Below, piece after piece: positions 9,056-63,445 of a DNA stretch of 64,000 bases. This stretch comes from an uncultured virus (IMG/VR IMGVR_UViG_3300021376_000001). Taxonomy: Duplodnaviria; Heunggongvirae; Uroviricota; Caudoviricetes. Location of the stretch: IMG/VR virus record IMGVR_UViG_3300021376_000001, one strand, 5' to 3'. Both the position numbers and the translations under genes were made by a program. Each line of letters opens with the position of its first letter. Positions within the stretch are counted from its first letter, which is position 1. The notes under the pieces were generated by a model. It did no database searches. It was not told where the DNA came from and worked only from the letters and a program-made list of their open reading frames with translations.

Positions 9056-9454
9056 ATGACCGTCGCAAGCAAGCATTTCCGCGTCAGCAAGAAGGCTGCT
9101 GAAGCCCTGGGCGTCACCGTGCTCAACGTGATGCAGCATTGCGTGATCGTGCGCACCCGCAAGGGGCCCCGCTTCATGAGCCGCAAGAAATTTGATGTGT
9201 GGGAGCAGGAGCAGCGTGCCCATAAGGCACGCAAATGCCACGTTCGCTACCTGGCGAACAATGTGTGGATGGTGCTGGATCCCGCCACGCCCACTGATGC
9301 CCACACTGTCATCCGCACTGGCGCTCAAGCCAAGAACATCGAAGGCAAGTGGAGCTGCACTTGCACTGATGCCCACTTCATGCTGGAGCGGGGCCAGGAG
9401 CCTTGCTGCAAGCACATCCTTGCCGCCCACATGCAACTTGCAATGGGGCATTGA
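9056..9454 (+). CDS. SWIM zinc-finger protein
   Basis: CTCTD...CCKHILA matches SWIM CxC-Xn-CxH. Confidence 0.75.
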   Translation: MTVASKHFRVSKKAAEALGVTVLNVMQHCVIVRTRKGPRFMSRKKFDVWEQEQRAHKARKCHVRYLANNVWMVLDPATPTDAHTVIRTGAQAKNIEGKWSCTCTDAHFMLERGQEPCCKHILAAHMQLAMGH

Positions 9455-9645
9455 TAGGGCTGGGCTGGGCTTCACGAGGCCCAGCCCTCACCGCCTGCTC
9501 CGTGGCGGCGCCTCATGAAAAATCATTGGGCGCCCTCAGCATAGCGTGTGCCAATCCAATCACCGGCCACTTTGCTTGCATCGTGCCCTGATTTCGCCTA
9601 CCTTATGTCTTGTTCGGGGCGCGAGCCTCATCCCCCTCCATTACC

Positions 9646-9888
9646 ATGCATCGCCCTTACGAAGGCCATCGCGAGAGCCCTTATCTCGCCAAGCTTGAAG
9701 CAGACCGCCAAGCTCAACACTGGGGCTATGGCGTGCGCAAATATCATATGGCCAATGGTTCTATCAAATGGGAGGCCTACACCTGGGAGCGCGTTACAGA
9801 GCTCATGGTCACCTCCACGCCCATCAGCGACCTGTTTGACCACCAGTGGGAAGCAGAGCATTTTTTTGATCTCCTGAAAAACCGTTGA
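9646..9888 (+). CDS. hypothetical early-type protein
   Basis: ATG ORF after a 5' hairpin. Confidence 0.55.
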   Translation: MHRPYEGHRESPYLAKLEADRQAQHWGYGVRKYHMANGSIKWEAYTWERVTELMVTSTPISDLFDHQWEAEHFFDLLKNR

Positions 9889-9893
9889 TAGCC

Positions 9894-10154
9894 ATGACCA
9901 CCATCCCTACCATCCATCTCAACGGCACTGGAGCCATCACTTTGCGCGATGAATATATGGCTGCTTACACGGCCATCAACAGCGCAATCAGCATGCTGCT
10001 TGCCGCCACTTGCAACGCTCGCGACTTCTACCCCCAAGGCTCTGATGCTTATTACAAAGCTCGCGATGAGCGCGTCGAAGCCGTTTCTAAGCTTCGTGAA
10101 GCCCATGCCTATGTGGGGGAAATTCTGATGGGCATCGCCGATCAAATGCCATGA
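9894..10154 (+). CDS. hypothetical phage protein
   Basis: PTIHLNGTG...NARDFYPQG; tightly packed with neighbours. Confidence 0.6.
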   Translation: MTTIPTIHLNGTGAITLRDEYMAAYTAINSAISMLLAATCNARDFYPQGSDAYYKARDERVEAVSKLREAHAYVGEILMGIADQMP

Positions 10155-10360
10155 ACAATCAGCGTCCTCCTCAGCCCGTGTTCACCATCATCTTGGAAAT
10201 GTCCACCATAGGCCGTCGTCCTTCTGTAACAAAGCGTTTCAGTATTGCAGCACCCGATGAAAAGACTGCTCTCATGAAAGCATTCATCCATGCAAAAGCT
10301 GGTAGTCGATGCAAAGTGCTAGACCATCGCGTCACTCAACAACCTGCCGTTTATTGGTAG
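10151..10360 (+). CDS. hypothetical protein
   Basis: ATGA overlap with the previous gene. Confidence 0.5.
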   Translation: MNNQRPPQPVFTIILEMSTIGRRPSVTKRFSIAAPDEKTALMKAFIHAKAGSRCKVLDHRVTQQPAVYW

Positions 10361-10365
10361 GAACA

Positions 10366-10608
10366 ATGCAACACGGAACAAAAACGCTCTCGCTAACTAT
10401 TAATCAGCGCAATCTATATATGTACTTTTTAGCGCATTGCAAAAATAATCAAAACACTCCTTGTTTTGTTCCTAAATTGCCCGTTCAAGGCAATAGTAAA
10501 GCCGACTATATTCGCTGCATCAAAGCATGCGAAGAAAAGGGCTTATTTATTGTTGATAGAAGCGCTGATAATTACACTGGCTGGATCATGATGCCAGTTA
10601 CCACATAA
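10366..10608 (+). CDS. hypothetical protein
   Basis: AT-rich ORF from MQHGTK. Confidence 0.5.
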   Translation: MQHGTKTLSLTINQRNLYMYFLAHCKNNQNTPCFVPKLPVQGNSKADYIRCIKACEEKGLFIVDRSADNYTGWIMMPVTT

Positions 10609-10658
10609 ATATATATACGGCATATATATCACGTTCGTTCTTTCTTTCGCATTGAATC

Positions 10659-10964
10659 ATGCATTACATCTGCAACTACAACAGCAATGGCCCTTACTTC
10701 GGATCCACTCAGGCGATTTTTCAGGCCGCTCGCCTGAAGGAGCTCATCTTTCACGTCAGGCTATGCATGGAAGAGGGGGACTACCAGATAGGCGTATTTG
10801 ACGATGACGGGAAATGCAAAGGCATTTGGGTGGACGAGAGCGAGCCCGAGCCCGATGGCGAGGGCGACTGGCAGCTCCCTAAGCCCGCATATAGGCTCTA
10901 TCGCTTAGGAGAAATGAGCGATACCCTCTGGCGCCTACACCTCAGCAAATTTAAGAAACCATGA
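10659..10964 (+). CDS. hypothetical protein
   Basis: 101 aa ATG ORF. Confidence 0.6.
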   Translation: MHYICNYNSNGPYFGSTQAIFQAARLKELIFHVRLCMEEGDYQIGVFDDDGKCKGIWVDESEPEPDGEGDWQLPKPAYRLYRLGEMSDTLWRLHLSKFKKP

Positions 10965-11119
10965 TCCTCATTGATTTCTTCTCTAGTGCTGCCTGCAAAG
11001 GCACTGAATTGATTGAAGGCTGGTATTTTTATGACGATGCAGATGAACGTGTGATAGGAGGGCCATATGACGACGAACAAGCGGCCATCAAGGCCGCGTT
11101 TGATGGCCATGGCTGGTAA
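10961..11119 (+). CDS. hypothetical acidic protein (52 aa, not in ORF track)
   Basis: ATGA overlap; MILIDFFS...EGWYFYDDADERVIGGPYDDEQAAIKAA. Confidence 0.55.
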   Translation: MILIDFFSSAACKGTELIEGWYFYDDADERVIGGPYDDEQAAIKAAFDGHGW

Positions 11120-11125
11120 AAGCCA

Positions 11126-11257
11126 AAGGACTCAAGAGAATGCGGTAATATGCTTTCCAGCTAAAAGGCCCGGCTCAAGCCGGGCCGGGGACTCACCAGA
11201 AGCCGGTAATGGGGATTCACTGAAAAATGGTAAGGGGACTTACGAGATCGCGGTAAT
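11126..11257 (+). repeat. four 23-24 bp direct repeats, consensus GGGGACTCAC-N8-GGTAAT-like
   Basis: Units at 11126-11149, 11187-11210, 11211-11233 and 11234-11257; GC hairpin 11167-11186 between units 1 and 2. Confidence 0.75.
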
Positions 11258-11317
11258 ATAGAAGCGCTTGAAAAGGGCGTTTTCGGGCCTTGTTGCGACC
11301 CATTCTCAATAGCAAGC

Positions 11318-11433
11318 TAGTACAAATGTACTGTAGTACAAATGTACTACCTAGTACAAATGTTCGCTAGTACAAATGTACTACTCTGGGCTTATTGAGA
11401 ATGAGAATCATTATCAATAGTACAAATGTACCA
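11318..11433. promoter_or_regulatory. array of five cyanobacterial LexA (SOS) boxes
   Basis: TAGTACAAATGTACT(A/G) at 11318, 11334 and 11368; TAGTACAAATGTTCGC at 11352; TAGTACAAATGTACCA at 11418; all fit the cyanobacterial consensus RGTACNNNDGTWCB. Confidence 0.8.
11397..11415. promoter_or_regulatory. Fur box
   Basis: GAGAATGAGAATCATTATC is 17/19 to GATAATGATAATCATTATC; weaker Fur-like sites at 11293-11311 and 11446-11468. Confidence 0.7.
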
Positions 11434-11480
11434 TTCTGGGGCTAGTTGCAATTGATTCTCAATTGCAAGCCCTGGGGGCA

Positions 11481-11590
11481 AGTGTGAAGAGTTGTGACAA
11501 TCCGGCCGGGAGGCCGCTCCTCGGCCTTCTCCGTTGCTACTGTTGCGCAGAGGCGAGCGATCGTCTCTGTTCTGTGCTCTGTCTGCCATG
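11481..11590 (+). promoter_or_regulatory. promoter/5'UTR module, copy 1
   Basis: TGTGA-N5-TGTGAC, -10 TACTGT at 11538, hairpin 24-mer 11548-11571 identical to copy 2. Confidence 0.65.
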
Positions 11591-11953
11591 CTCGCGCCTT
11601 CTCTGCGCTCCCCTTCCTTCCCTCCTCTTGAGGAGCCCCTCGCCGCTCTCTCCTCTCTCCCATGGGAGCGGATCGCCTCCGAGGCTCTCGAGGCGCTCCT
11701 TTTCTCTCTGGCTCTCTGCCATGCTCTCGCCTCTCGCCTCTGGCAAGAGCGAGGCCGGCTCTCTCCCCTCCTTCGCTCTGTTGCTGCTCTCCTCGAGCGC
11801 CTCGCCGCTTCTCTGCCCGAGCCGCTCTCAGAGGCCTCCCCTCGCGCTCTGTTGATCGAGGCGCTCTCTCAAGCTGGCGAGAGCCCCTACTCCCTCGCGA
11901 AGGCCTCCCGCTCCGCTCTGCTCAAGCGAGCCTCTCGCCTCGGCCTCCTCTGA
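11588..11953 (+). CDS. hypothetical L/S/A-rich protein (island gene 1)
   Basis: ATG directly after promoter module 1; amphipathic helical pattern. Confidence 0.65.
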   Translation: MLAPSLRSPSFPPLEEPLAALSSLPWERIASEALEALLFSLALCHALASRLWQERGRLSPLLRSVAALLERLAASLPEPLSEASPRALLIEALSQAGESPYSLAKASRSALLKRASRLGLL

Positions 11954-12013
11954 GGCTATGATCCCCGGAAGGCCGCGAGGCCTCCCCTCCCCCTCCTCTC
12001 TGCTCTGCTGATC

Positions 12014-12244
12014 ATGCTGCGCTCTGCTCTGTTCGCTCTGGCTCTCCTGTCGGCTCCCGCTCTCGCCTCCCCCCTAGTGGTGGCTCCTTTTGAGCCTATG
12101 GTGCGCCTCGAGGCCTTCCCCCATCTCTCCCCCTCTCGCTTCTCGACCGTCTCCCATTGTCTCGCCGCTGCCGGCTCTGAGCTCTCGCTGATCACTGACG
12201 ACGAGCTCGAGACGGTCGAGGCCTGTCTCCTCGATCACACCTAA
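12014..12244 (+). CDS. hypothetical secreted-type protein (island gene 2)
   Basis: Signal-peptide-like MLRSALFALALLSAPALA; -10 TATGAT at 11957. Confidence 0.65.
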   Translation: MLRSALFALALLSAPALASPLVVAPFEPMVRLEAFPHLSPSRFSTVSHCLAAAGSELSLITDDELETVEACLLDHT

Positions 12245-12281
12245 GGAGCGCGAGCTCCTCTCCCCCTCTCTCTTTCCTCCC

Positions 12282-12545
12282 ATGGCGGCCTTCTCTTCTC
12301 TGTCTCTCTCTCAGCAGCTTGCCCACCTAGTCACTCAGTACGACATACGGCAAGCCCGGAGGCGTTACCACAACCCTCACGCTCTCGCTCTTTATCTCAA
12401 GGCCGCCGATCGAGCCGCTTCTCTGGTGGCAGACGGCTTGCCTCTCTCTGAGGCTCTGGCTCTCTGTTTTAATGATCGCCTTCTCGCTTCGCTGCAGCGT
12501 TCTCTCTCCCTCCTCTCCCATGGCTCAGCCTCTCTCTCCCCCTGA
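12282..12545 (+). CDS. hypothetical protein (island gene 3)
   Basis: Complex segment QYDIRQARRRYHNPHALALYL breaks the local bias, as expected for constrained coding sequence. Confidence 0.7.
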   Translation: MAAFSSLSLSQQLAHLVTQYDIRQARRRYHNPHALALYLKAADRAASLVADGLPLSEALALCFNDRLLASLQRSLSLLSHGSASLSP

Positions 12546-12837
12546 GCTTGCCGCTCTGCTCTCTGCAGTAGAGAGCGAAGGCCGCCAGCTCTCCCCCTCT
12601 GAGCTCGAGGCCGTGCTCGCGCTCCCTCCCCTTCGCCGTCTCTCTCCTGAGGAGAAGCGCCTCGAGACAATCGAGCGCCTTCTCCCTCGCCTCTCTGGTG
12701 AGGCCGAGGAGCGCCTCCTCCTTGAGAGGCGCTCCCTCCTTCGCCGTCTCCATAGCGTCCCGCTCTCAATCGAGCTCCCCCTCTCTGTTCGCTCTGCTGA
12801 TCTCTCCTCCTCCTCCTCCCATGCTCTCCCCCTCTGA
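12520..12837 (+). CDS. hypothetical protein (island gene 4)
   Basis: CCCATG start, E/R/L helical pattern, overlaps its neighbours. Confidence 0.6.
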   Translation: MAQPLSPPELAALLSAVESEGRQLSPSELEAVLALPPLRRLSPEEKRLETIERLLPRLSGEAEERLLLERRSLLRRLHSVPLSIELPLSVRSADLSSSSSHALPL

Positions 12838-13066
12838 GGCCTTCCTCTCCTCTGTCCCTTCGCTCGCTCGAGCCATGCTCCCGGCTCCTTCCTCCTCTCC
12901 CTCCTATGTGAGAGCTCTTCTCCTTGATCGAGCCGAGGAGCTCGGCCTCTCCCCCTGTGGCCTCCCCTTCGTGCTCGAGGAGCTCGCTCGATGGCTCCCC
13001 TCTGCCACAATCGAGGCCTTCCTCTCTGATCTCGAGGAGCTCCTCGCGGATTGTGAAGGATTGTGA
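12821..13066 (+). CDS. hypothetical acidic protein (island gene 5)
   Basis: CCCATG start; VLEELARWLPSATIEAFLSDLEELL. Confidence 0.6.
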   Translation: MLSPSEAFLSSVPSLARAMLPAPSSSPSYVRALLLDRAEELGLSPCGLPFVLEELARWLPSATIEAFLSDLEELLADCEGL

Positions 13067-13162
13067 CAATCCGAGGGGGAGGCTCTGGCCTCCCCCTTCT
13101 CTTCGCTTACCATTGCGCACAGAGGCGAGCGATCGTCTCTGTTGTTTGCTCTGTTGATCATG
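13050..13162 (+). promoter_or_regulatory. promoter/5'UTR module, copy 2
   Basis: TGTGA-N5-TGTGAC, -10 TACCAT at 13108, identical 24-mer at 13120-13143. Confidence 0.65.
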
Positions 13163-13390
13163 CTCCGCTCTGTTCGCGCCTTCGCTCCTACGTTCGCGCT
13201 CCTCTCGGGGACAGCGCTCTTCGGCCTCTGTTGCTTCACCTATGGGAAGGGAATCGTCTCGGCTCCCTCCCCCGAGGAGGCCGCTCCCTTCGCCGTCCCC
13301 TTCGTTCTCTGCGCTGCTGCTGCAGGTACCTCCCTGGCTATTGCAGGCGCTGCAGCTTGTGATGCTGCAGAGAAGCTCTCCCGCTCCTGA
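13160..13390 (+). CDS. small two-TM membrane protein (island gene 6)
   Basis: Two hydrophobic stretches; followed by a GC hairpin at about 13397-13422. Confidence 0.6.
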   Translation: MLRSVRAFAPTFALLSGTALFGLCCFTYGKGIVSAPSPEEAAPFAVPFVLCAAAAGTSLAIAGAAACDAAEKLSRS

Positions 13391-13458
13391 TCCCCTGGCC
13401 TCCCCTCTCAAAGGGGGAGGCCTTCTCTTTGTCTGCTCTCTCCTCTTCTCTGTTGATC

Positions 13459-14577
13459 ATGGCTCCCGCTCTCCTGGCTCCTCCTGCTCCTCTCAAGTTC
13501 TCCCGCTCTCCTCGTCTCCCTGAGGAGCTCCGCTCCTTCCTCGATCGCTTCTCTCTCTCCCTAGATAGCCTCCTCACTTATGGGAGCGCTAACGCGAAGC
13601 TGGCGAAGGGAAGCGGCCTCGCCTTCTCTGCGCTCCTGCATCTCCTCCCCTCGCGCTCCCTGGCTCGCGCTCTGTCCCCTTCTCTTCCTGGCTCTGTTGC
13701 CGTGAGGGGAGAGCTCCCCGGCCTTCGTGAGCTCGCCGATCGCGAAGGCCTCACGGCTCGCGCTCTCCTCTTTAATGCCTGCCCGTTCTCCACTGAGAGC
13801 TGCCGTGATCTCTGCCTCGCCTTCTCTGGCCATGGTGGGCTCTCTGTCTCTGTGGCCTCCTGCCGTGCTCGCCGCTCTCTCGCGCTCCTCGCCGATCGGG
13901 AGGCCTTCGCTCGCTGCCTCCTATGGGCGGCCGGCCTCTCCTACCGGAAGGCTCGCCGCCTCGGCCTCCCCTTCGCTCTGAGACTGAATGGCACTCAGGA
14001 GCTCCCGTGGACAGAGCTCTGGCTCGCCGCTCGCATCTCTTCAGAGGAGGCCGAGGCTCTCTCTTCTCTGTTTGGCTCTCCCGTCTCCCCCGGCTCTCGC
14101 ACTGTTCCCGAGGCTCTCGCCTCTGTCCCCTTCCTCTCTCTCTACGATTATGCGAAGGCGCCTCTGTTCGGCCGCTCTGGCCTCCTTGCTATGCGAGCGG
14201 CCGGCATCCATACCACGGCGTCCTTCGCCGCTGATCAGGAGAGAGCCTCCTCTCGCGCAATCGATGCGGCAGAGGCGGGCTTCTCTGTGGCCGTGCCGAT
14301 CCTCCTCCCTAAGGGAGAGCCTCTCCCTGCCTCGCTCCTTCTTCGCGATCAACACGGCAGAGAGGCGCTCCTGCAGTGCATCGATGGAGACGCTAACGAT
14401 CTCAGGATGCTCGATCCGTCTCCCGCTCTTGGCTTCTCCGGCCTCGCCGTTCTCCTTCGCCTCAAGCGCTCCCGAGGCGCCTCCCCTGCGAGCGCCTCTC
14501 GCTTCGCGCTTCCCCTTGGCTCTGGCTCCTGGCAGGCTCTGCCAGATGGCGGCTCCTTTGCCTTCTCTCGCATTTGA
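13459..14577 (+). CDS. gp88-like cysteine-cluster (radical-SAM-like) phage protein (island gene 7)
   Basis: NAKLAKG, CPFSTESCRDLCL, ALRLNGT..LPW, LYDYAK, IDGD.NDLR.LDP and LRLK motifs recalled from this phage family. Confidence 0.7.
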   Translation: MAPALLAPPAPLKFSRSPRLPEELRSFLDRFSLSLDSLLTYGSANAKLAKGSGLAFSALLHLLPSRSLARALSPSLPGSVAVRGELPGLRELADREGLTARALLFNACPFSTESCRDLCLAFSGHGGLSVSVASCRARRSLALLADREAFARCLLWAAGLSYRKARRLGLPFALRLNGTQELPWTELWLAARISSEEAEALSSLFGSPVSPGSRTVPEALASVPFLSLYDYAKAPLFGRSGLLAMRAAGIHTTASFAADQERASSRAIDAAEAGFSVAVPILLPKGEPLPASLLLRDQHGREALLQCIDGDANDLRMLDPSPALGFSGLAVLLRLKRSRGASPASASRFALPLGSGSWQALPDGGSFAFSRI

Positions 14578-14612
14578 GCCCCTCCCCCTCCCCCTCCCCC
14601 TCCTGCTCTGCC

Positions 14613-14852
14613 ATGGCCTCCCCCTCCTCTCGTCTCCCCCTCGCTCCCGTTCTCTCTGCCTCAGGCGCTCGCCTCGGCTCCGTCTCCTCTCTCCCCGATG
14701 GCTCCCCTGATCCTCTCCTCGCCTCTGTTCTCCTCTCCTATGTGGAGAGGCTCTCTAAGGAGGAGCGCTCTCGAGAGCTCGCTCGCGAGGCCTTCGCCAG
14801 AGGAGAGCGCCTCCCGGCCTCCTCTGTCTGGTGTATCTCCGACAGAGACTAA
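14613..14852 (+). CDS. hypothetical protein (island gene 8)
   Basis: GCCATG start; ends VWCISDRD. Confidence 0.55.
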   Translation: MASPSSRLPLAPVLSASGARLGSVSSLPDGSPDPLLASVLLSYVERLSKEERSRELAREAFARGERLPASSVWCISDRD

Positions 14853-14866
14853 GGAGAGCCCCTCCC

Positions 14867-15094
14867 ATGGCTCGCGCCTTCCTCCTCCCCTCTCGCTCCT
14901 CCCTCTCCCTCCTCCTCCTCTCTCGCTCCTCTCCTCCCCTTCCCTTCCTCTGTTCCTTCTCCTCTTGGCGATCCCGCGAGGCCGGATGGCTCGGCCTCCT
15001 CTCCCTTCGCCTCCCTGGCCTCTGGCTTCTCTGGCTCCGCTCTCTCCCCTCCCCTGAGAAGCTCTCCCGGCTCGGCCTCAGAGGCCTGCCATAG
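14867..15094 (+). CDS. hypothetical protein (island gene 9)
   Basis: CCCATG start after AAGGAG; most extreme compositional bias. Confidence 0.4.
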   Translation: MARAFLLPSRSSLSLLLLSRSSPPLPFLCSFSSWRSREAGWLGLLSLRLPGLWLLWLRSLPSPEKLSRLGLRGLP

Positions 15095-15231
15095 CCTCTC
15101 CTCGCCTCCTCTCAGCCCCTCCCGAGCCCCTCTCTCGAGCCCGCTTCCCTCCCTAGGTTGGCGGGCTCCTTTGTGCTCGCTTCTCTGTTTGCGTCTCGCT
15201 TTTCTCACGGTTAGGGGGAAAGCCGCCCAGT

Positions 15232-15253
15232 TTTTCCACAGGCCTGTGGAAAA
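15232..15253. promoter_or_regulatory. perfect 22-bp palindrome of two inverted DnaA boxes
   Basis: TTTTCCACA-GGCC-TGTGGAAAA; TTTTCCACA is the cyanobacterial DnaA box. Confidence 0.7.
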
Positions 15254-15323
15254 CTCTGTTTGTTGCGATTTCGTAACATTAAAACCCCTGATGGGGACTG
15301 GCTTTTGCTATAAACCGTGCTAA

Positions 15324-15363
15324 TAGTACAAATGTACCACAGCGCAGTAGTACGGGCGTACTA
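15324..15363. promoter_or_regulatory. two further LexA-type boxes
   Basis: TAGTACAAATGTACCA at 15324-15339 (identical to the box at 11418) and TAGTACGGGCGTACTA at 15348-15363. Confidence 0.75.
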
Positions 15364-15424
15364 GCCGCAAGGGGCGGGCATACCCCTCCGAAAAGTGGGG
15401 CCATTTTTCATCTAGTTTTTTCCT

Positions 15425-15943
15425 TTATGCATCAGTGCATAACTCTTGGCAGGTGAGCTGCATCTTCAATGCAGCGAGACGACGACCCATTTGAATGAGT
15501 TCTTGTTCAGTGGCATCACGCTTGATGGCATTGGCTCGATGAGAGACGATGATGACATTGCCTTTGACATAGCCCTTTGCATTGTCTATGCGATCAAGGG
15601 AGGGGCTATTGGGGAAGGGGCGATTAGTAATGCCAGTGCCATATTGAGAATGCCAACGGAATTCAATGTCAAGATAGGGACATGATGGGGTGAGGATGCT
15701 TTCTAAGTAGAGAGCATCAATATTGTGATCAAGGTTTTTCTTTTTAGCTCGTCTTTTCGCATCCGAGACCATTTGCGAAAGTTGAGTGGAGCGAGGATTG
15801 CGGCGTTTTGAGGCTGCTTTGGTGTTGTTATTACAGGAACCACATTGAGAGGAGAGGCCTGAGGGAGTTGAGGCATCTTTATGGAAGGAGGAAATGTGCT
15901 TGGTGGCTCCACATTTTGAGCATTGCTTAAAGGAAGAAGACAC
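15425..15943 (-). CDS. HNH-type endonuclease with N-terminal Zn ribbon
   Basis: CSKC...CGSC; SPSLDRIDNAKGYVKGNVIIVSHRANAIK. Confidence 0.8.
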   Translation of the reverse strand: MSSSFKQCSKCGATKHISSFHKDASTPSGLSSQCGSCNNNTKAASKRRNPRSTQLSQMVSDAKRRAKKKNLDHNIDALYLESILTPSCPYLDIEFRWHSQYGTGITNRPFPNSPSLDRIDNAKGYVKGNVIIVSHRANAIKRDATEQELIQMGRRLAALKMQLTCQELCTDA

Positions 15944-16582
15944 AAGAAGCGGAAAGCTGAACAGAGCATAGTCACAGTGTTTAGAAATGCAAGCTTGCTA
16001 TGGCGAATCAAGGCCCCAAAGGGCCGCAGATGAGCCATATGGCGAAGCTTCGTTCAGAGCTTTCCCTTCAGAATTTTCCAGCTTAAAGAGCGGCCTAAAG
16101 CCGCTCTTTCTTATTGCCAAAGTCAGTCCTTTTCTTTTGCATTGTTCTTTCAAAAAAGCGGCCCCCTAAGGGCCGCTTTATGAGAAAACTAGATTGTTTT
16201 TCTTGATTTTTATCTGTTCTGGCCGTTGCACATAGTTTCCCCCTGCATTGACCAGAGAACGGGAGCGTCGCCGCTTTGGGCGGCTCCTTGAACTGGAAGG
16301 ACATTTGCCAGTCCTAAGCTGGAACTTGCTGGATGTCAGGTTGTGCCAGAGGGGCTCGTCGCTTGAGGCTCCTCGCTGGGCTCTGGACATCCAGGGCATG
16401 CTGGCAGTTCTGGAAGGCGACGCGGGAATTGAATCGTATTCAGAACGGCCGTTGCACAATGCCTAGCATAACGTGACCTGTGGCTCCATTTGAGGCATTT
16501 CTGGTATAGCAGCGAGCATTTTGGCTAAATTTTCCATATTTTTTTAAAAATTCTTTATGAAAGCAAGGACAGCGCGAAGAAA

Positions 16583-16624
16583 GTAACAAGAACTACTTGC
16601 GCAAGTTGTTGCTATCTTTAGCGT
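16583..16624 (+). promoter_or_regulatory. putative NtcA-activated promoter
   Basis: GTA-N8-TAC (16583-16596), N22, then TAGCGT. Confidence 0.45.
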
Positions 16625-16650
16625 GAATGGATTCTTTTCGCATTGTCCTC

Positions 16651-16839
16651 ATGTTTGACAATCTTCCAGAGCCTTTCGTGGCAGGAACCATCAAACTATG
16701 GCCTGTGCATAGTCGTTCAGATATGAAATGGTTTATTGCTTATGAAGGACATCCATACTATTTCCGCACAAAAAATGAAGCCCTCCTTTTTGTTCGTGAC
16801 AGACAGTCCATCGAAGACGGCGACATGTTGTGCGATTAG
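16651..16839 (+). CDS. hypothetical protein
   Basis: ORF MFDNLPEPF...; alternative start at 16627. Confidence 0.55.
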   Translation: MFDNLPEPFVAGTIKLWPVHSRSDMKWFIAYEGHPYYFRTKNEALLFVRDRQSIEDGDMLCD

Positions 16840-26969: not shown

Positions 26970-28184
26970 ATGGCCAAAATTCTTTATTGCGGCGACTGCG
27001 CCGTGCAGACAGGCTTCGGGCGTGTAGCGGAAAATATCCTTCCTGTACTTGCCAAAGAGCACGAGATCGTTGTTCTGGCGGTGAACTACTGGGGCGATCC
27101 TCATGAGATGCCATTCCGTCTGTATCCGGCTATGCCTGGCGGTAACGATCCGTTCGGCTCGCATCGTCTGCCGGAGATTTTGCATAAGGAAAAGCCGGAT
27201 CTGGTGTTTGCCGTTAATGACATCTGGATCTTGAACAACCTGTGGGCAGCGGCCAAGCCTTACCAGGAAGAGCTGGGCTTCAAGTGGTATGGCTATTTCC
27301 CAACAGATAGTTATGGCTTCTTCCCGGACGTGTTTGAGCCATGCAAGGAATGGGATGGCATGGGCACTTACACGCAGTTTGGTTTGAAAGAGGTGCGAAA
27401 GGCTGGCTGTGAGCTGCCATGTGATGTAATCCCACATGGCATTGACCGTTCGACGTTCTTCCAAATGGACCAGAACGAATGTCGAAAGGAACTGGGGTTG
27501 CCGGAGGATGTGTTTGTGGTGTTCAACGGGAACCGTAACCAACCTCGCAAACGCATCGATTTGACAATCAAGGGTTTCATTCAGTTTGCACTGGACAAGC
27601 CTGATGCCCGCCTGTGGCTGCATATGGGCAAGAAAGACCAGGGCTGGGATCTGATCCCGCTGTTTAAGCGCATGTCGCGTGACTACGGCTTTGATTCAAC
27701 AGGCAAGCTTATTCTCACCAGTCAAGATTTTGACGTGACTCGCTGTTTACCAGTGGAGCGCTTGAACATGGTGTACAACGCTGCCGACATTGGCGTCAAC
27801 ACTTGCATCGGCGAGGGCTGGGGCCTTGTCAACTTTGAGCACGCCGCGACCAACACTGCGCAGGTGGTGCCGGACCATACAAGCCTGGTCGAGATTTTTG
27901 ATGCCATTCCTCGCATTCCAATTGAAAGCTGGAGCGTGGACCAGAACTATGGTCTAGACCGTGGCCAGCCATCGCCAGATGGCATGGCCCAGATCCTGAC
28001 GCACTACTACGAAAACCGCGAAGACCTGCAGAAAGTGGCCAATTGGTGCGGCTCCAGGCTTGCCCAGGATCAGTATTCGTGGGATGTGATTGGCGATGCG
28101 TTCTTGACCATTGTCAATCGCACCTTGGACGGGCCTGCAAAAAGCGGTCAAGGCTTTGATAAAAAGATCATGCCGGAGGTTTGA
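26970..28184 (+). CDS. glycosyltransferase, GT-B fold (GT4-like)
   Basis: TGFGRV, IPHGID, NRNQPRKR and YNAAD..GEGWGL..FEHAA motifs. Confidence 0.9.
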   Translation: MAKILYCGDCAVQTGFGRVAENILPVLAKEHEIVVLAVNYWGDPHEMPFRLYPAMPGGNDPFGSHRLPEILHKEKPDLVFAVNDIWILNNLWAAAKPYQEELGFKWYGYFPTDSYGFFPDVFEPCKEWDGMGTYTQFGLKEVRKAGCELPCDVIPHGIDRSTFFQMDQNECRKELGLPEDVFVVFNGNRNQPRKRIDLTIKGFIQFALDKPDARLWLHMGKKDQGWDLIPLFKRMSRDYGFDSTGKLILTSQDFDVTRCLPVERLNMVYNAADIGVNTCIGEGWGLVNFEHAATNTAQVVPDHTSLVEIFDAIPRIPIESWSVDQNYGLDRGQPSPDGMAQILTHYYENREDLQKVANWCGSRLAQDQYSWDVIGDAFLTIVNRTLDGPAKSGQGFDKKIMPEV

Positions 28185-28187
28185 GCT

Positions 28188-29600
28188 GTGAATTTTGACG
28201 TGCGTAAGGGCACGATGGATGCCCACATTTTTTATCAAGTTTTCAAGCGCAACGAATATGAGCTTGACAATTTGAACGGATATGTAGTGGTTGACATTGG
28301 CTGCCACATAGGTTCTTTTGCTGCCAAGGCCGTAGAGCGCGGTGCCAAACAGGTCGTGAGCTTTGAACCAAGCAAGGCAAATTTTGGTATTGCTGGCAGC
28401 AATTTATCTGGCTTGTCAATGTGCGAAGTGCGAAATTTAGCCGTTGGACGCAGCGATATTAATACGCCAATGCTGCTGGATATGAGTGATGATCCCACCA
28501 ACTTTGGTGGTTCATGCACGGTGACCGATTATGGTTCTCCTGTGGAAACGGTTTCTCTAGATGCAGTCATCGAGGAGCTGTCTCCAAAGATGATCAAGAT
28601 TGATGCAGAGGGAGCCGAATATCCGGTGCTTTACACATGCACTCGGCTTGATGAAGTGGAAACCATCTTTGGTGAATTCCACAATGCACTTGGCACTCAG
28701 GCTATGGGCATTTTTTCTTTGGACGAGCAAACGCCTGAGTTTTTGCAAGATTTCAAGGGGCGCCTCAATATACGAGCTCTGGCTGAATTCTTAAAAGAAA
28801 AAGGTTTTCGCGTATTGGTAGACAATATTGACGCCCAAATTGGTCACTTTTGGGCGTCAAAAACATTTCAAGGATTGACCGTGGCACCAAGTCCAAAGGA
28901 AGAGAGCGCTTTGTTTCCAGGAAAAGTTTGCACCCAAGTAGACCTGTCCTCTGGAAGCCTGCCGGGTGATGATCGCCCAATGGTATTTTGCATTAGTTTG
29001 CTGGAGCAAGAACGTTTACAGGCATTTGAGCAATGGGCCAATAAGCAGGGGCAGGAATATACGACATGGGCTGCGGTCGATGCTCGGAATATGTCTAGAG
29101 AAGAGGCTGAACAAGAGGCCGATCGCCCCGTGGAATGGGACATGCCAAATAATCCGGGAGCGCTAAAAAAACCCACGGAAGTGGGCCTGCTGCTGTCGTC
29201 AGTGCATTTATGGCAGCATGCTCTCGACCTTGGCCTGCCTTATTTAGCGGTAATTGAAGACGACGCAAAGCTTGTGGGGCCGTTAAAATTTAGCATACCA
29301 ATTGACGCGGATATTGTATTTTTTAATGACCGTAGTTACCGGCGTGAAGACGGCGTGGTGACTGGTGCAATTTGTGGCACTGATGGTTACTTGTTGACGC
29401 GGTCTGGCATACAAAAAATGTTGCAAATTTACGAACGCTTTTGGATGCCTGTTGACTTGCAGTGGCAGCCACAAATTGATGGCTTACGAGAGTGCGGGCA
29501 TGTGCTCTCTGGGTATTGGAATCGATTTTTGCCTTCAGTTATTGGTTATGCATTGCCCCCGTTAACTCAGCACGGTGCCTTTCAGAGCAGTATTCGTTAG
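28188..29600 (+). CDS. FkbM methyltransferase fused to GT25-like glycosyltransferase
   Basis: N-terminal VVDIGCHIG and KIDAEGAE; C-terminal FCISL..AVD..EVG..LS..IEDD..GT.GY..PVD. Confidence 0.8.
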   Translation: MNFDVRKGTMDAHIFYQVFKRNEYELDNLNGYVVVDIGCHIGSFAAKAVERGAKQVVSFEPSKANFGIAGSNLSGLSMCEVRNLAVGRSDINTPMLLDMSDDPTNFGGSCTVTDYGSPVETVSLDAVIEELSPKMIKIDAEGAEYPVLYTCTRLDEVETIFGEFHNALGTQAMGIFSLDEQTPEFLQDFKGRLNIRALAEFLKEKGFRVLVDNIDAQIGHFWASKTFQGLTVAPSPKEESALFPGKVCTQVDLSSGSLPGDDRPMVFCISLLEQERLQAFEQWANKQGQEYTTWAAVDARNMSREEAEQEADRPVEWDMPNNPGALKKPTEVGLLLSSVHLWQHALDLGLPYLAVIEDDAKLVGPLKFSIPIDADIVFFNDRSYRREDGVVTGAICGTDGYLLTRSGIQKMLQIYERFWMPVDLQWQPQIDGLRECGHVLSGYWNRFLPSVIGYALPPLTQHGAFQSSIR

Positions 29601-62860: not shown

Positions 62861-62947
62861 TTGTAGCCGATATTCTTTAATTATAAGCTTGCTTCGCTGG
62901 GCTTGTTTCGGCGATAGATTGGGACAAACCAATTGAAGAAGAGCGTC

Positions 62948-63445
62948 ATGTTTGTGGCGTATGAGCCGAATGATTACATTCGCGACCTCATTGAATTACG
63001 CTCATCCGATGCAACGCGACGTTTTAGAAAGTCCATCTTCACCGACTATCCATTGAGAGGCCCGCTAGGGCAGCCAGCTTGTGCATTCTGCGGACGCTGG
63101 CATGACAAACTCACGCTCGACCACATTGTTCCGAAAAGCAAGGAAGGTCCGCATTTTGCTAGGTGGAACCTGGCTCCAGCCTGCACTCATTGCAACCTCG
63201 ACAAGAGCAATTTACCGCTGTTTGAATGGTGGCGGCCCAAGGATTGGTGGTCTGAGCAGCGTGAAGAAATCTTGATGACTTGGATTTACGTCAACAGTTT
63301 CATCGATGCCCACACTAATTCCGCTGAATACTGGAGCATCCTGGAAAGCCGTCGAGTGGTGCAGCAAGTGCCAGTGCAGCGACCACAAGAAAGGGGGCCT
63401 TCGTGGCCCCCTTTTGACTATGCAAAACAATGGGCAGCGGCCTAG
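62948..63445 (+). CDS. HNH endonuclease
   Basis: CAFCG..LTLDHIVPKSK.G...NL.PAC..CN..K. Confidence 0.9.
   Translation: MFVAYEPNDYIRDLIELRSSDATRRFRKSIFTDYPLRGPLGQPACAFCGRWHDKLTLDHIVPKSKEGPHFARWNLAPACTHCNLDKSNLPLFEWWRPKDWWSEQREEILMTWIYVNSFIDAHTNSAEYWSILESRRVVQQVPVQRPQERGPSWPPFDYAKQWAAA

Follow-up and report, generated by a model that had tools for sequence, protein, structure and literature searches.

The immunity region of phage lambda is an exchangeable block of genes between the operators OL and OR, the pre-early region of phage T5 is physically terminal and lies within a long terminal repeat, and T4-type phages reportedly carry promoter-early stem-loop (PeSL) cassettes, said to have been described by Arbiol et al. 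in 2010. Phage genes controlled by LexA are also known, for instance in coliphage 186 (tum) and in CTXphi. A further case is GIL01, in which, according to the accessible part of PMC4551915, a LexA-controlled promoter (P1 of that phage) operates with gp7. Here we analyse a locus with likenesses to all of these in a stretch of 64,000 nucleotides (nt) from the uncultured virus of IMG/VR record IMGVR_UViG_3300021376_000001, a member of the Caudoviricetes; this whole stretch is called the window below. The subject is a block (also called the island) at about 11,480-15,150, poor in adenine and rich in pyrimidines, with boxes resembling host LexA sites at both of its edges. We tentatively read it as an accessory operon that is internal and exchangeable and belongs to a family of freshwater cyanosiphoviruses like Synechococcus phage S-CBS4, and not as a genome end. 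On the best reading of the sequence it would be a LexA-gated accessory operon with its transcript composition under some form of selection.

The likeness to GIL01, 186 and CTXphi lies in host LexA boxes within a phage control region which, judged by their sequence, make the expression of phage genes depend on SOS. In those temperate phages the boxes govern the lytic switch, whereas a scan of 78 flanking proteins recognised neither an integrase nor a repressor here (about 6-11 kb of the 70-75-kb genome lie outside the window), the arrays stand at both ends, and the genes under their putative control form a hypervariable cassette. As in the lambda immunity region, operator arrays 2-4 kb apart flank an exchangeable gene block, but the operators match the repressor of the host and no repressor gene was recognised in the block. 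In the PeSL cassettes, likewise, a unit of promoter and stem-loop is repeated around small genes, early or accessory, and recombination at these units shuffles them between related phages; they are not known to have strand-specific base depletion or host-repressor boxes, and here it is a whole multi-gene block that is swapped. With the T5 pre-early region the locus shares small co-oriented genes of obscure function bounded by repeats and palindromes, but it is internal, of single-copy depth and without homologous genes.

The + strand of the block consists of 9.7% A, 41.2% C, 23.3% G and 25.8% T, while each base accounts for 24-27% of the remaining window, and the skew is found nowhere else in the 64 kb. 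The sequence-only reading of this DNA had claimed a C/T-biased block of about nine co-oriented genes, and this is borne out: nine + strand open reading frames (ORFs) lie in the block, and the change takes place inside one 100-nt bin on each side, A falling from 31% (bin 11,400) to 8% (bin 11,500) on the left and rising from 4% (bin 15,100) to 22% (bin 15,200) on the right. It had also placed the switches in composition at the clusters of binding sites; they are as abrupt as was said, but on the left about 70 nt separate the last box from the switch that follows it, and on the right the switch precedes the boxes by about 170 nt. Since a promoter-like motif marks the left switch and terminator-like hairpins the right one, the odd composition spans the predicted transcript from start to end, and it is the sense strand between promoter and terminators that is depleted in adenine and, more weakly, in guanine. 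An unusually unstructured mRNA was considered and rejected, the minimum folding free energy being -49.9 kcal/mol per 150 nt against -45.6 in other genes and -56.3 in balanced random sequence of the same G+C. A literature search of narrow reach returned no report of such a composition, nor of the Pfam family PF17338 to which one of the genes belongs, which does not show that none is published.

The skew runs through the genes, A making up 8.3, 14.8 and 5.4% of codon positions 1, 2 and 3. Leu, Ala, Ser, Arg and Pro together account for 66% of island residues, and CTC is chosen for 158 of 218 Leu. The recoding claimed from the sequence is hence real, and it is retained in relatives. An explanation on the level of codons, whereby the genes avoid codons whose tRNAs are targets of anticodon nucleases (Lys, Asn, Thr, Tyr, Gln) or fit a special tRNA pool, would agree with the reduction of several residues relative to the other genes (K 1.4 vs 4.3%, N 0.6 vs 4.9%, T 1.8 vs 6.9%, I 1.5 vs 5.5%, Q 1.3 vs 3.9%), with the 74% of codons that end in a pyrimidine, and with the three tRNAs that the phage carries (two tRNA-Thr and one tRNA-Met). 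However, Glu is not avoided (6.4% of residues, with GAG in 66 of 69 cases), and the 443 non-coding nt within the island, its leaders and spacers, are as A-poor as the genes (8.1% A). Because the non-coding parts are equally depleted, the pressure acts on nucleotides and not on codons; a codon-only cause is thereby ruled out, and we regard avoidance of particular tRNAs as scarcely credible.

Contig L032 is 99.8% identical to the window over 9,312-11,507 and 95% identical over 15,114-15,396, and between these flanks it carries an unrelated insert of 3.1 kb, G+C-rich yet A-poor, whose GP88 protein (the family of g7 in the window) is 47% identical. In run X4 the flanks reach a depth of 76-84 and pieces of the window's island one of 9-15, and a contig joins 11,507 to 15,154, if weakly, the shorter side being 30 letters. 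A search of viral contigs with GP88 returned 29 loci at 59-91% identity, all 29 with an A-poor block and in the same position, between the small genes (9-11 kb) and the ribonucleotide reductase (RNR) gene. For an independent sample, relatives were found with a conserved upstream 52-amino-acid (aa) gene, o52, so that the search was not conditioned on the island; 80 of 202 were kept, and the statistics refer to the 65 distinct loci in which 1 kb or more follows o52. The architecture, which the sequence-only reading had proposed to look for in related contigs, does recur there: an A-poor block of at least 1 kb is present in 37 of the 65 and absent from 28, and a LexA-type box stands within 1 kb after o52 in 47, with nine boxes over the other 623 kb. 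Within the A-poor class there are two flavours, one C+T-rich as in the window and one G+C-rich (A 12.6, C 39.2, G 29.0 and T 19.1%). The block is an allelic cassette, very different alleles lying between near-identical flanks. A chimeric assembly, which had been named as a condition that would overturn the claim, is unlikely because 45 distinct contigs hold both flanks.

Two causes of the composition remain, selection on the transcript or a strand-specific mutation bias. The view that it has no present function, being the relic of a foreign donor or the outcome of a mutation bias tied to heavy transcription, draws on the exact match of the bias to the transcribed span, as transcription-linked mutation would produce, and on composition classes that track the cassette lineage and not the locus, the A content of GP88 genes being 10.5-15.8% (49 rows) or else 23.7-30.1% (9 rows, at 25-30% protein identity). 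As to a donor, the genomes of 185,579 species held 19 loci at 22-38% identity, none of them A-poor and no homologue above 38%, and host genes have G equal to or above C and 14-20% A; an origin of the island from the host was rejected on these grounds. Transcription-linked damage on the exposed strand changes C to T, A to G and G to T and lowers C, yet C is the commonest base of the island (41%). The bias also endures a protein divergence of 40-55%, in both flavours, and it shifts amino-acid usage while invariant residues keep their A-containing codons: an alignment of 23 GP88 homologues has 37 invariant residues, including N, K, H, T, Y and D. Its persistence across alleles that differ at half their residues, the sparing of invariant residues and its recurrence in a host mRNA leader (below) speak for selection, and we consider a composition devoid of function unlikely.

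According to the sequence-only reading, the block was instead a segment that is terminal or injected first, or else a long terminal repeat that had collapsed, with ends that recruit host proteins as a cap, ratchet or stop in the manner of T5. Edges rich in repeats and palindromes agree with this, and the record of S-CBS4, the sole isolate among the relatives, lacks exactly this locus, as a separately assembled repeat could explain. Nevertheless, in all five relatives with a CheckV completeness of 100% the locus is internal, at 6-24 kb from the closer end of the contig, and one of them closes through an exact overlap of 127 nt, the mark of a circular assembly. The twofold depth expected of a long terminal repeat is not seen in runs X2 and X3, where word depth is 6.6-7.3 for island-only and 5.0-7.7 for flank-only contigs, a weak test as these are contig depths only. 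By eye there is no hot spot of contig ends at the locus, the distances from o52 to the end falling off smoothly on both sides. Furthermore, the composition sets in with a promoter-like motif rather than a DNA end, and runs to the terminators; a terminal repeat would leave unlike alleles in identical flanks unexplained; and no T5-type pre-early family (A1, A2, dmp) was matched by the nine island proteins in Pfam, PHROGs and NCBIfam. A terminal segment is on this evidence most improbable.

The linear S-CBS4 record (NC_016766), labelled complete, breaks off within the homologue of ORF 10,659-10,964 and opens within the one of ORF 16,627-16,839 (L030:11,214-11,421; L031:1-209). It is without an equivalent of about 10,865-16,640 of the window, a span that comprises o52, the locus in full and the HNH gene, and has no GP88. 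This is probably an unclosed assembly gap, although a separately assembled repeat would look alike.

The elements of the locus apart from the genes are the following:

10961..11119, + strand: o52, the conserved 52-aa gene always ahead of the locus, used as an island-independent anchor

11128..11259, no strand: iteron-like 24-nt direct repeats like GGACTnnnnGAnnnGCGGTAAT, with good copies at 11,128, 11,189 and 11,236

11167..11186, - strand: G+C-rich hairpin followed by a T run, terminator-like

11319..11432, no strand: five LexA-type boxes, three of them AGTACAAATGTACT, one with one mismatch and one with two

11397..11415, no strand: Fur-type box GAGAATGAGAATCATTATC

11493..11501, + strand: P1, the promoter-like motif TGTGACAAT, which reads as an extended -10, with the allele breakpoint and composition switch 6 nt further on

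11508..15113, + strand: A-poor, pyrimidine-rich cassette, type i allele, with two predicted transcription units

13062..13162, + strand: P2 unit, a second TGTGACAAT followed by a two-hairpin leader (family D9, 49 nt, 86% identical)

15114..15396, no strand: conserved right-hand module with hairpins, an inverted DnaA-box pair and LexA-type boxes, 95% identical to L032

The left-hand LexA-type boxes start at 11,319, 11,335, 11,353 (the one with two mismatches), 11,369 and 11,419, and those of the right-hand module at 15,325 and 15,349. With up to two mismatches the LexA pattern has 22 strand matches in the window against an expected 5.4 +/- 2.9, a number reached by none of 100 shuffles; these seven edge sites supply 14 of the 22 and are the sole good matches. 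All seven boxes that had been claimed are thus present, and only at the edges of the block. The 18-mer AATAGTACAAATGTACCA is confirmed at 11,416 and 15,322. In the complete relatives boxes are confined to this locus in four of five, the fifth having none. The boxes fit the 14-bp palindrome AGTACWNWTGTACT, which the available text of PMC3091678 gives as the cyanobacterial LexA consensus, in agreement with the claim that they match host LexA sites. In at least six relatives a LexA box abuts the promoter-like motif, and TGT[GTC]NCAAT stands at the composition switch in 17 of the 37 A-poor ones. The internal unit of motif and leader seen at P2 is found in relatives too; in the window its leader folds at -42 kcal/mol (z -4.6, with none of 200 shuffles as good).

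The arrays might instead be decoys: as the genome replicates, their boxes would titrate LexA (and Fur and DnaA), and host genes for SOS, iron or replication would be turned on irrespective of the cassette. Four perfect boxes (AGTAC-N4-GTACT), or seven with the near-matches, are many for one window when whole host-type genomes of 3.2 and 2.7 Mb have 4 and 6, and boxes in tandem at 16-17 nt, set far upstream of P1, would be a strange arrangement for simple repression. On the other hand, box number varies from 0 to 5 among relatives, 18 of the 65 loci have none within 1 kb, several relatives have a single box exactly on the promoter-like motif, and the DnaA pair recurs in just five of 45 other loci. 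We therefore hold a decoy function to be improbable.

The 24-bp repeats on the left edge are as had been claimed, three of the four being good copies and the fourth, at about 11,213, degenerate. Nearly all relatives (L001-L106) have three to five iteron-like direct repeats of 22-24 nt in the first 150 nt or so after o52, in two sequence families, GGGACTnGCTGAAAnGCGGTAT-like and GGnCCGGCTAGnnnCGTAT-like; they may be an origin or sites for a phage protein. A putative Fur box, confined like the LexA and exact DnaA boxes to the edges of the block, agrees at 17 of 19 positions with the 19-bp Fur consensus GATAATGATAATCATTATC, and a related palindrome lies at 11,446-11,468 (inverted repeat I10). The chance expectation for the Fur-type box is 0.01, and its two strand matches were reached in none of 100 shuffles; units of GATAATGATTCTCATTCTCAAT, similar to it, occur in relatives. 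Between the LexA boxes and the promoter-like motif, relatives such as L002-L004, L014, L016 and L020 have differing families of short palindromes or repeats, of the TATGCGCATA type, the TGATCATGATCA type with many GATC, the GATACGTATC type and CTTAACC runs, and by its sequence this region looks like a collection of protein-binding sites. The sole sigma-70-like match of the region is on the - strand (TTGAGA-18-CAGAAT, window 11,433-11,462). An RNA predicted to run leftward from it would start at the box at 11,419, pass the other boxes and end at the strong terminator-like hairpin at 11,167-11,186, and it may be a small LexA-controlled RNA.

The closest parallel to the start of the block comes from the probable host. 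The matches to the GP88 profile include a 1.5-kb contig of a metagenome-assembled genome (MAG) titled Synechococcus sp. (G006), in which the box upstream of recA, AGTACGCCCGTACT, is the reverse complement of the window box at 15,349-15,362; the lexA gene was not found in this MAG, an incomplete genome. In all 20 further genomes of the genus a LexA box lies upstream of recA, 244-369 nt before the RecA domain. The recA leader of G006 and the Ser/Pro-rich N-terminal extension that follows (about 200 nt; L132:1,501-1,745) contain 7.6% A, 40.9% C, 21.8% G and 29.8% T, values near those of the island. After the recA box, A at or below 10% together with C+T of at least 62% occurs in seven of the 20 further genomes and in none of 618 control windows, and C+T of at least 61% in 16 of the 20. 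The host recA promoter and leader (G006-G029) thus share with the phage block the spelling of the box, a CAAT-ending motif a few bases after it and an A-poor, pyrimidine-rich transcript start with C above G. They differ from it in that the odd composition extends for some 200 nt in the host and for 3.6 kb and nine genes in the phage, in the lack of homology beyond the box, and in that other host LexA-box sites are without such a segment.

Given this parallel, host LexA probably gates the operon as it does recA, in which case the operon would be read once LexA is cleaved or outnumbered. That selection on the transcript, rather than on codons or a DNA end, maintains the composition is a more tentative proposal. 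The phage would seem to extend over 3.6 kb the device with which the host recA mRNA opens, and its products would be possibly a radical-SAM-like (S-adenosylmethionine) GP88 enzyme and small membrane or secreted proteins. The likeliest pay-off, itself doubtful, would be an mRNA with few of the adenine- and uridine-dependent 'AU clamp' sites of RNase E, and with pyrimidine-rich leaders lacking a Shine-Dalgarno sequence, which is still translated when RNase E is raised by infection or ultraviolet (UV) light. RNWUU, which we take to be an RNase E-type motif, occurs four times in the island against 74.6 times per equal length of other genes. According to the accessible part of PMC10989914, A is enriched at -4/-3 and U at +2 of cyanobacterial RNase E sites, and cyanophage infection induces rne; the regulation of RNase E under UV is, from what is available of it, the subject of PMC10989929. 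A broader and equally speculative version has the cassette as a transcript-hardened unit that enlarges the host recA device: its mRNAs would escape RNase E or A-dependent defence RNases and keep yielding protein while infection or UV leads to the destruction of host messages, the arrays, besides gating the operon, would sequester LexA, Fur and DnaA as phage genomes accumulate, and the flavours, tuned by G+C to host clades, would be swapped at the conserved modules.

Selection could also act on the DNA template. A transcribed strand poor in T would form few transcription-blocking dimers, and an SOS operon hardened in this way would be readable from sunlight-damaged DNA. The putative control by LexA agrees with such a function, as do the scarcity of sense-strand AA (template TT; 0.011 vs 0.070 in other genes) and of purine-purine steps as a whole (0.16 vs 0.26), the under-representation of sense TT (rho 0.53), a transcribed strand poorer in C than its complement, and an order of base use, A << G < T < C, that fits the order of dimer yields. 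Purines are clumped, however, with 579 purine-purine steps against 388 +/- 13 in shuffles and rho values of 2.17 for AG, 2.24 for GA and 1.21 for AA, so that a fine-scale avoidance of template pyrimidine dimers was rejected. Moreover, the sense strand is a dense target for dimers (pyrimidine-pyrimidine steps 0.50), host recA is A-poor over its first 200 nt or so only, which cannot protect a template of 1.3 kb, and the bias is absent from 28 of the 65 relatives. A UV-hardened template is accordingly a poor candidate.

Several observations weigh against a LexA-gated operon with a selected transcript. The boxes of the window lie 61-183 nt upstream of P1 and not over it, the geometry of a repressor, with the box at the motif, being seen solely in relatives; P1 and P2 are themselves inferred, and a scan with the sigma-70 consensus called neither. 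The depletion of RNWUU is mostly a by-product of composition (4 against 10.1 +/- 3.5 under a first-order model), and ACA is not avoided (11 vs 2.6). Neither the locus nor its control forces the composition, because 28 of the 65 relatives lack the A-poor block at the locus and a LexA box is nonetheless present in 21 of these 28. In the host the parallel is confined to recA: an A-poor segment follows none of eight other perfect LexA boxes in two complete genomes, so that a general host rule of a LexA box followed by an A-poor leader was discarded. Capture of the host recA leader by the phage was likewise rejected, there being no homology beyond the 15-16-nt box, and the host genus is itself inferred from one MAG title and the host of S-CBS4.

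The nine genes of the island and the gene that follows it are:

11588..11953, + strand: g1, 121 aa, a core gene of type i and type ii alleles; ratio of nonsynonymous to synonymous substitution (dN/dS) 0.28-0.46

12014..12244, + strand: g2, 76 aa, with a hydrophobic N-terminus like a signal peptide by eye; dN/dS 0.15-0.21

12282..12545, + strand: g3, 87 aa, common to type ii alleles at 71-76% identity

12520..12837, + strand: g4, 105 aa; dN/dS 0.30-0.54

12821..13066, + strand: g5, 81 aa, a core gene; dN/dS 0.16-0.33

13160..13390, + strand: g6, 76 aa, in which two stretches look hydrophobic by eye; a strong hairpin comes after the gene at 13,397-13,422

13459..14577, + strand: g7, 372 aa, Pfam GP88 by profile match

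14613..14852, + strand: g8, 79 aa; dN/dS 0.43-0.74

14867..15094, + strand: g9, 75 aa, hydrophobic, the least certain of the nine to be coding; dN/dS 0.24-0.96

15425..15943, - strand: HNH or endonuclease VII-type gene (phrog_3322, 5.9e-32), outside the cassette and variable among relatives

The island ORFs are real genes under purifying selection, pairwise dN/dS against nine relatives being 0.14-0.54 in g1-g7, 0.43-0.74 in g8 and 0.24-0.96 in g9, and gene content is mosaic among relatives. The g2 and g6 products look secreted or membrane-bound by eye. For g1 the predicted structure is one long helix with three short C-terminal helices, a weak model (predicted local distance difference test, pLDDT, 75; predicted template-modelling score, pTM, 0.34). 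Searches of Pfam, PHROGs and NCBIfam with the nine proteins returned just GP88, phrog_1617 and a weak phrog_14769 (E 0.0024), with no NCBIfam match for 12 proteins.

The g7 product matches GP88 (PF17338) with 35.3 bits, above the curated cut-off of 24.4 (E 1.5e-8), and phrog_1617 at 1.7e-21; its type iii homologue in L035 scores 79.9 bits for GP88, and the nearest protein-atlas clusters are also GP88. The predicted structure (pLDDT 85, pTM 0.87) resembles a radical-SAM half-barrel, and the enzyme may be radical-SAM-like: in a comparison with 48,161 representative chains the top 19 are all radical-SAM enzymes, but with Z scores of just 5.2-6.7. Foldseek with the same model found no match at E <= 0.001, and the GP88 profile had no meaningful match among PDB sequences. 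The three invariant Cys of g7 are spaced C-x6-C-x3-C (C108-x6-C115-x3-C119) and not as in the radical-SAM cluster motif CX3CX2C. A DUF7227 protein of cassettes without GP88 (L070) was considered as a distant relative and dismissed (hhalign probability 0.4%). In the type ii relatives L072 (7,000-8,622) and L067 (1,187-2,800) the GP88 frame is about 540 aa long, with an extra N-terminal part of normal-looking composition that is either a fusion or the artefact of an upstream start.

In the right-hand module the terminator-like hairpins lie at 15,160-15,181 and 15,232-15,253. The DnaA-box palindrome that had been claimed is an exact inverted pair of TTTTCCACA at 15,232 (+) and 15,245 (-), with no other exact copies in the window; the available text of PMC4674748 gives this motif as the cyanobacterial DnaA box. 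DnaA-like 9-mers with one mismatch are not enriched in the window (25 vs 18.9 +/- 4.4), and where an oriC would have a cluster of several DnaA boxes and an A+T-rich unwinding element, there are two boxes forming one hairpin-capable palindrome. The 45 other loci mentioned above, which hold both o52 and the RNR gene, include a further two with a single box, and LexA-type boxes stand on the right edge in 12 of the 30 complete A-poor relatives. In runs X1-X3 a 33-nt stretch with the DnaA palindrome (15,229-15,262) also stands in another contig, and as the flank of that contig has further TGTGGAAAA repeats, a second replicon from these lakes has a bigger cluster of DnaA boxes.

The window holds most of the genome of a siphovirus-type cyanophage. 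It encodes a portal, the major capsid protein, a tape measure, lambda-type tail proteins L and J and the large terminase, together with a Sak-type annealing protein, a primase/helicase, both RNR subunits and an endolysin; the portal and RNR are 79.3 and 82.7% identical to those of S-CBS4. The sequence occurs in runs labelled lake water or freshwater metagenomes. A megablast of the locus against 50,697 phage records gave no match, and an Rfam scan of 10,800-15,800 gave just a chance miRNA row (E 0.31). An alignment of 19 o52 sequences (A1) has a mean column identity of 82%. Between the portal and capsid genes, at 26,970-29,600 (+), are glycosyltransferase (GT4, GT25) and FkbM-type methyltransferase domains, which are unusual in a head module.

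Besides the HNH-type gene at 15,425-15,943, which adjoins the locus, the window has another at 62,933-63,445 (+). Such genes come directly after the 52-aa gene in several relatives (those listed are L011, L018, L088, L094, L095 and L099), while L085, L097, L104 and L105 have there a putative DNA methyltransferase gene, judged by eye from its N-terminal sequence. The site after the 52-aa gene generally serves selfish and accessory genes as a place of insertion.

The family offers a natural experiment, as sister phages fill one locus with versions of the same genes that are C+T-rich, G+C-rich or ordinary in composition, and with S-CBS4, the only cultured relative, the system would be testable in culture once the gap in its record is closed. 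The phage routes known so far are antisense RNA or nuclease inhibitors, and we know of no earlier case of a phage that protects a whole operon by leaving out one base. If the composition is indeed selected on the level of RNA, this phage would shield an entire operon by omitting one base from the message, and the finding would suggest that a signal in the recA mRNA of the host itself has been overlooked.

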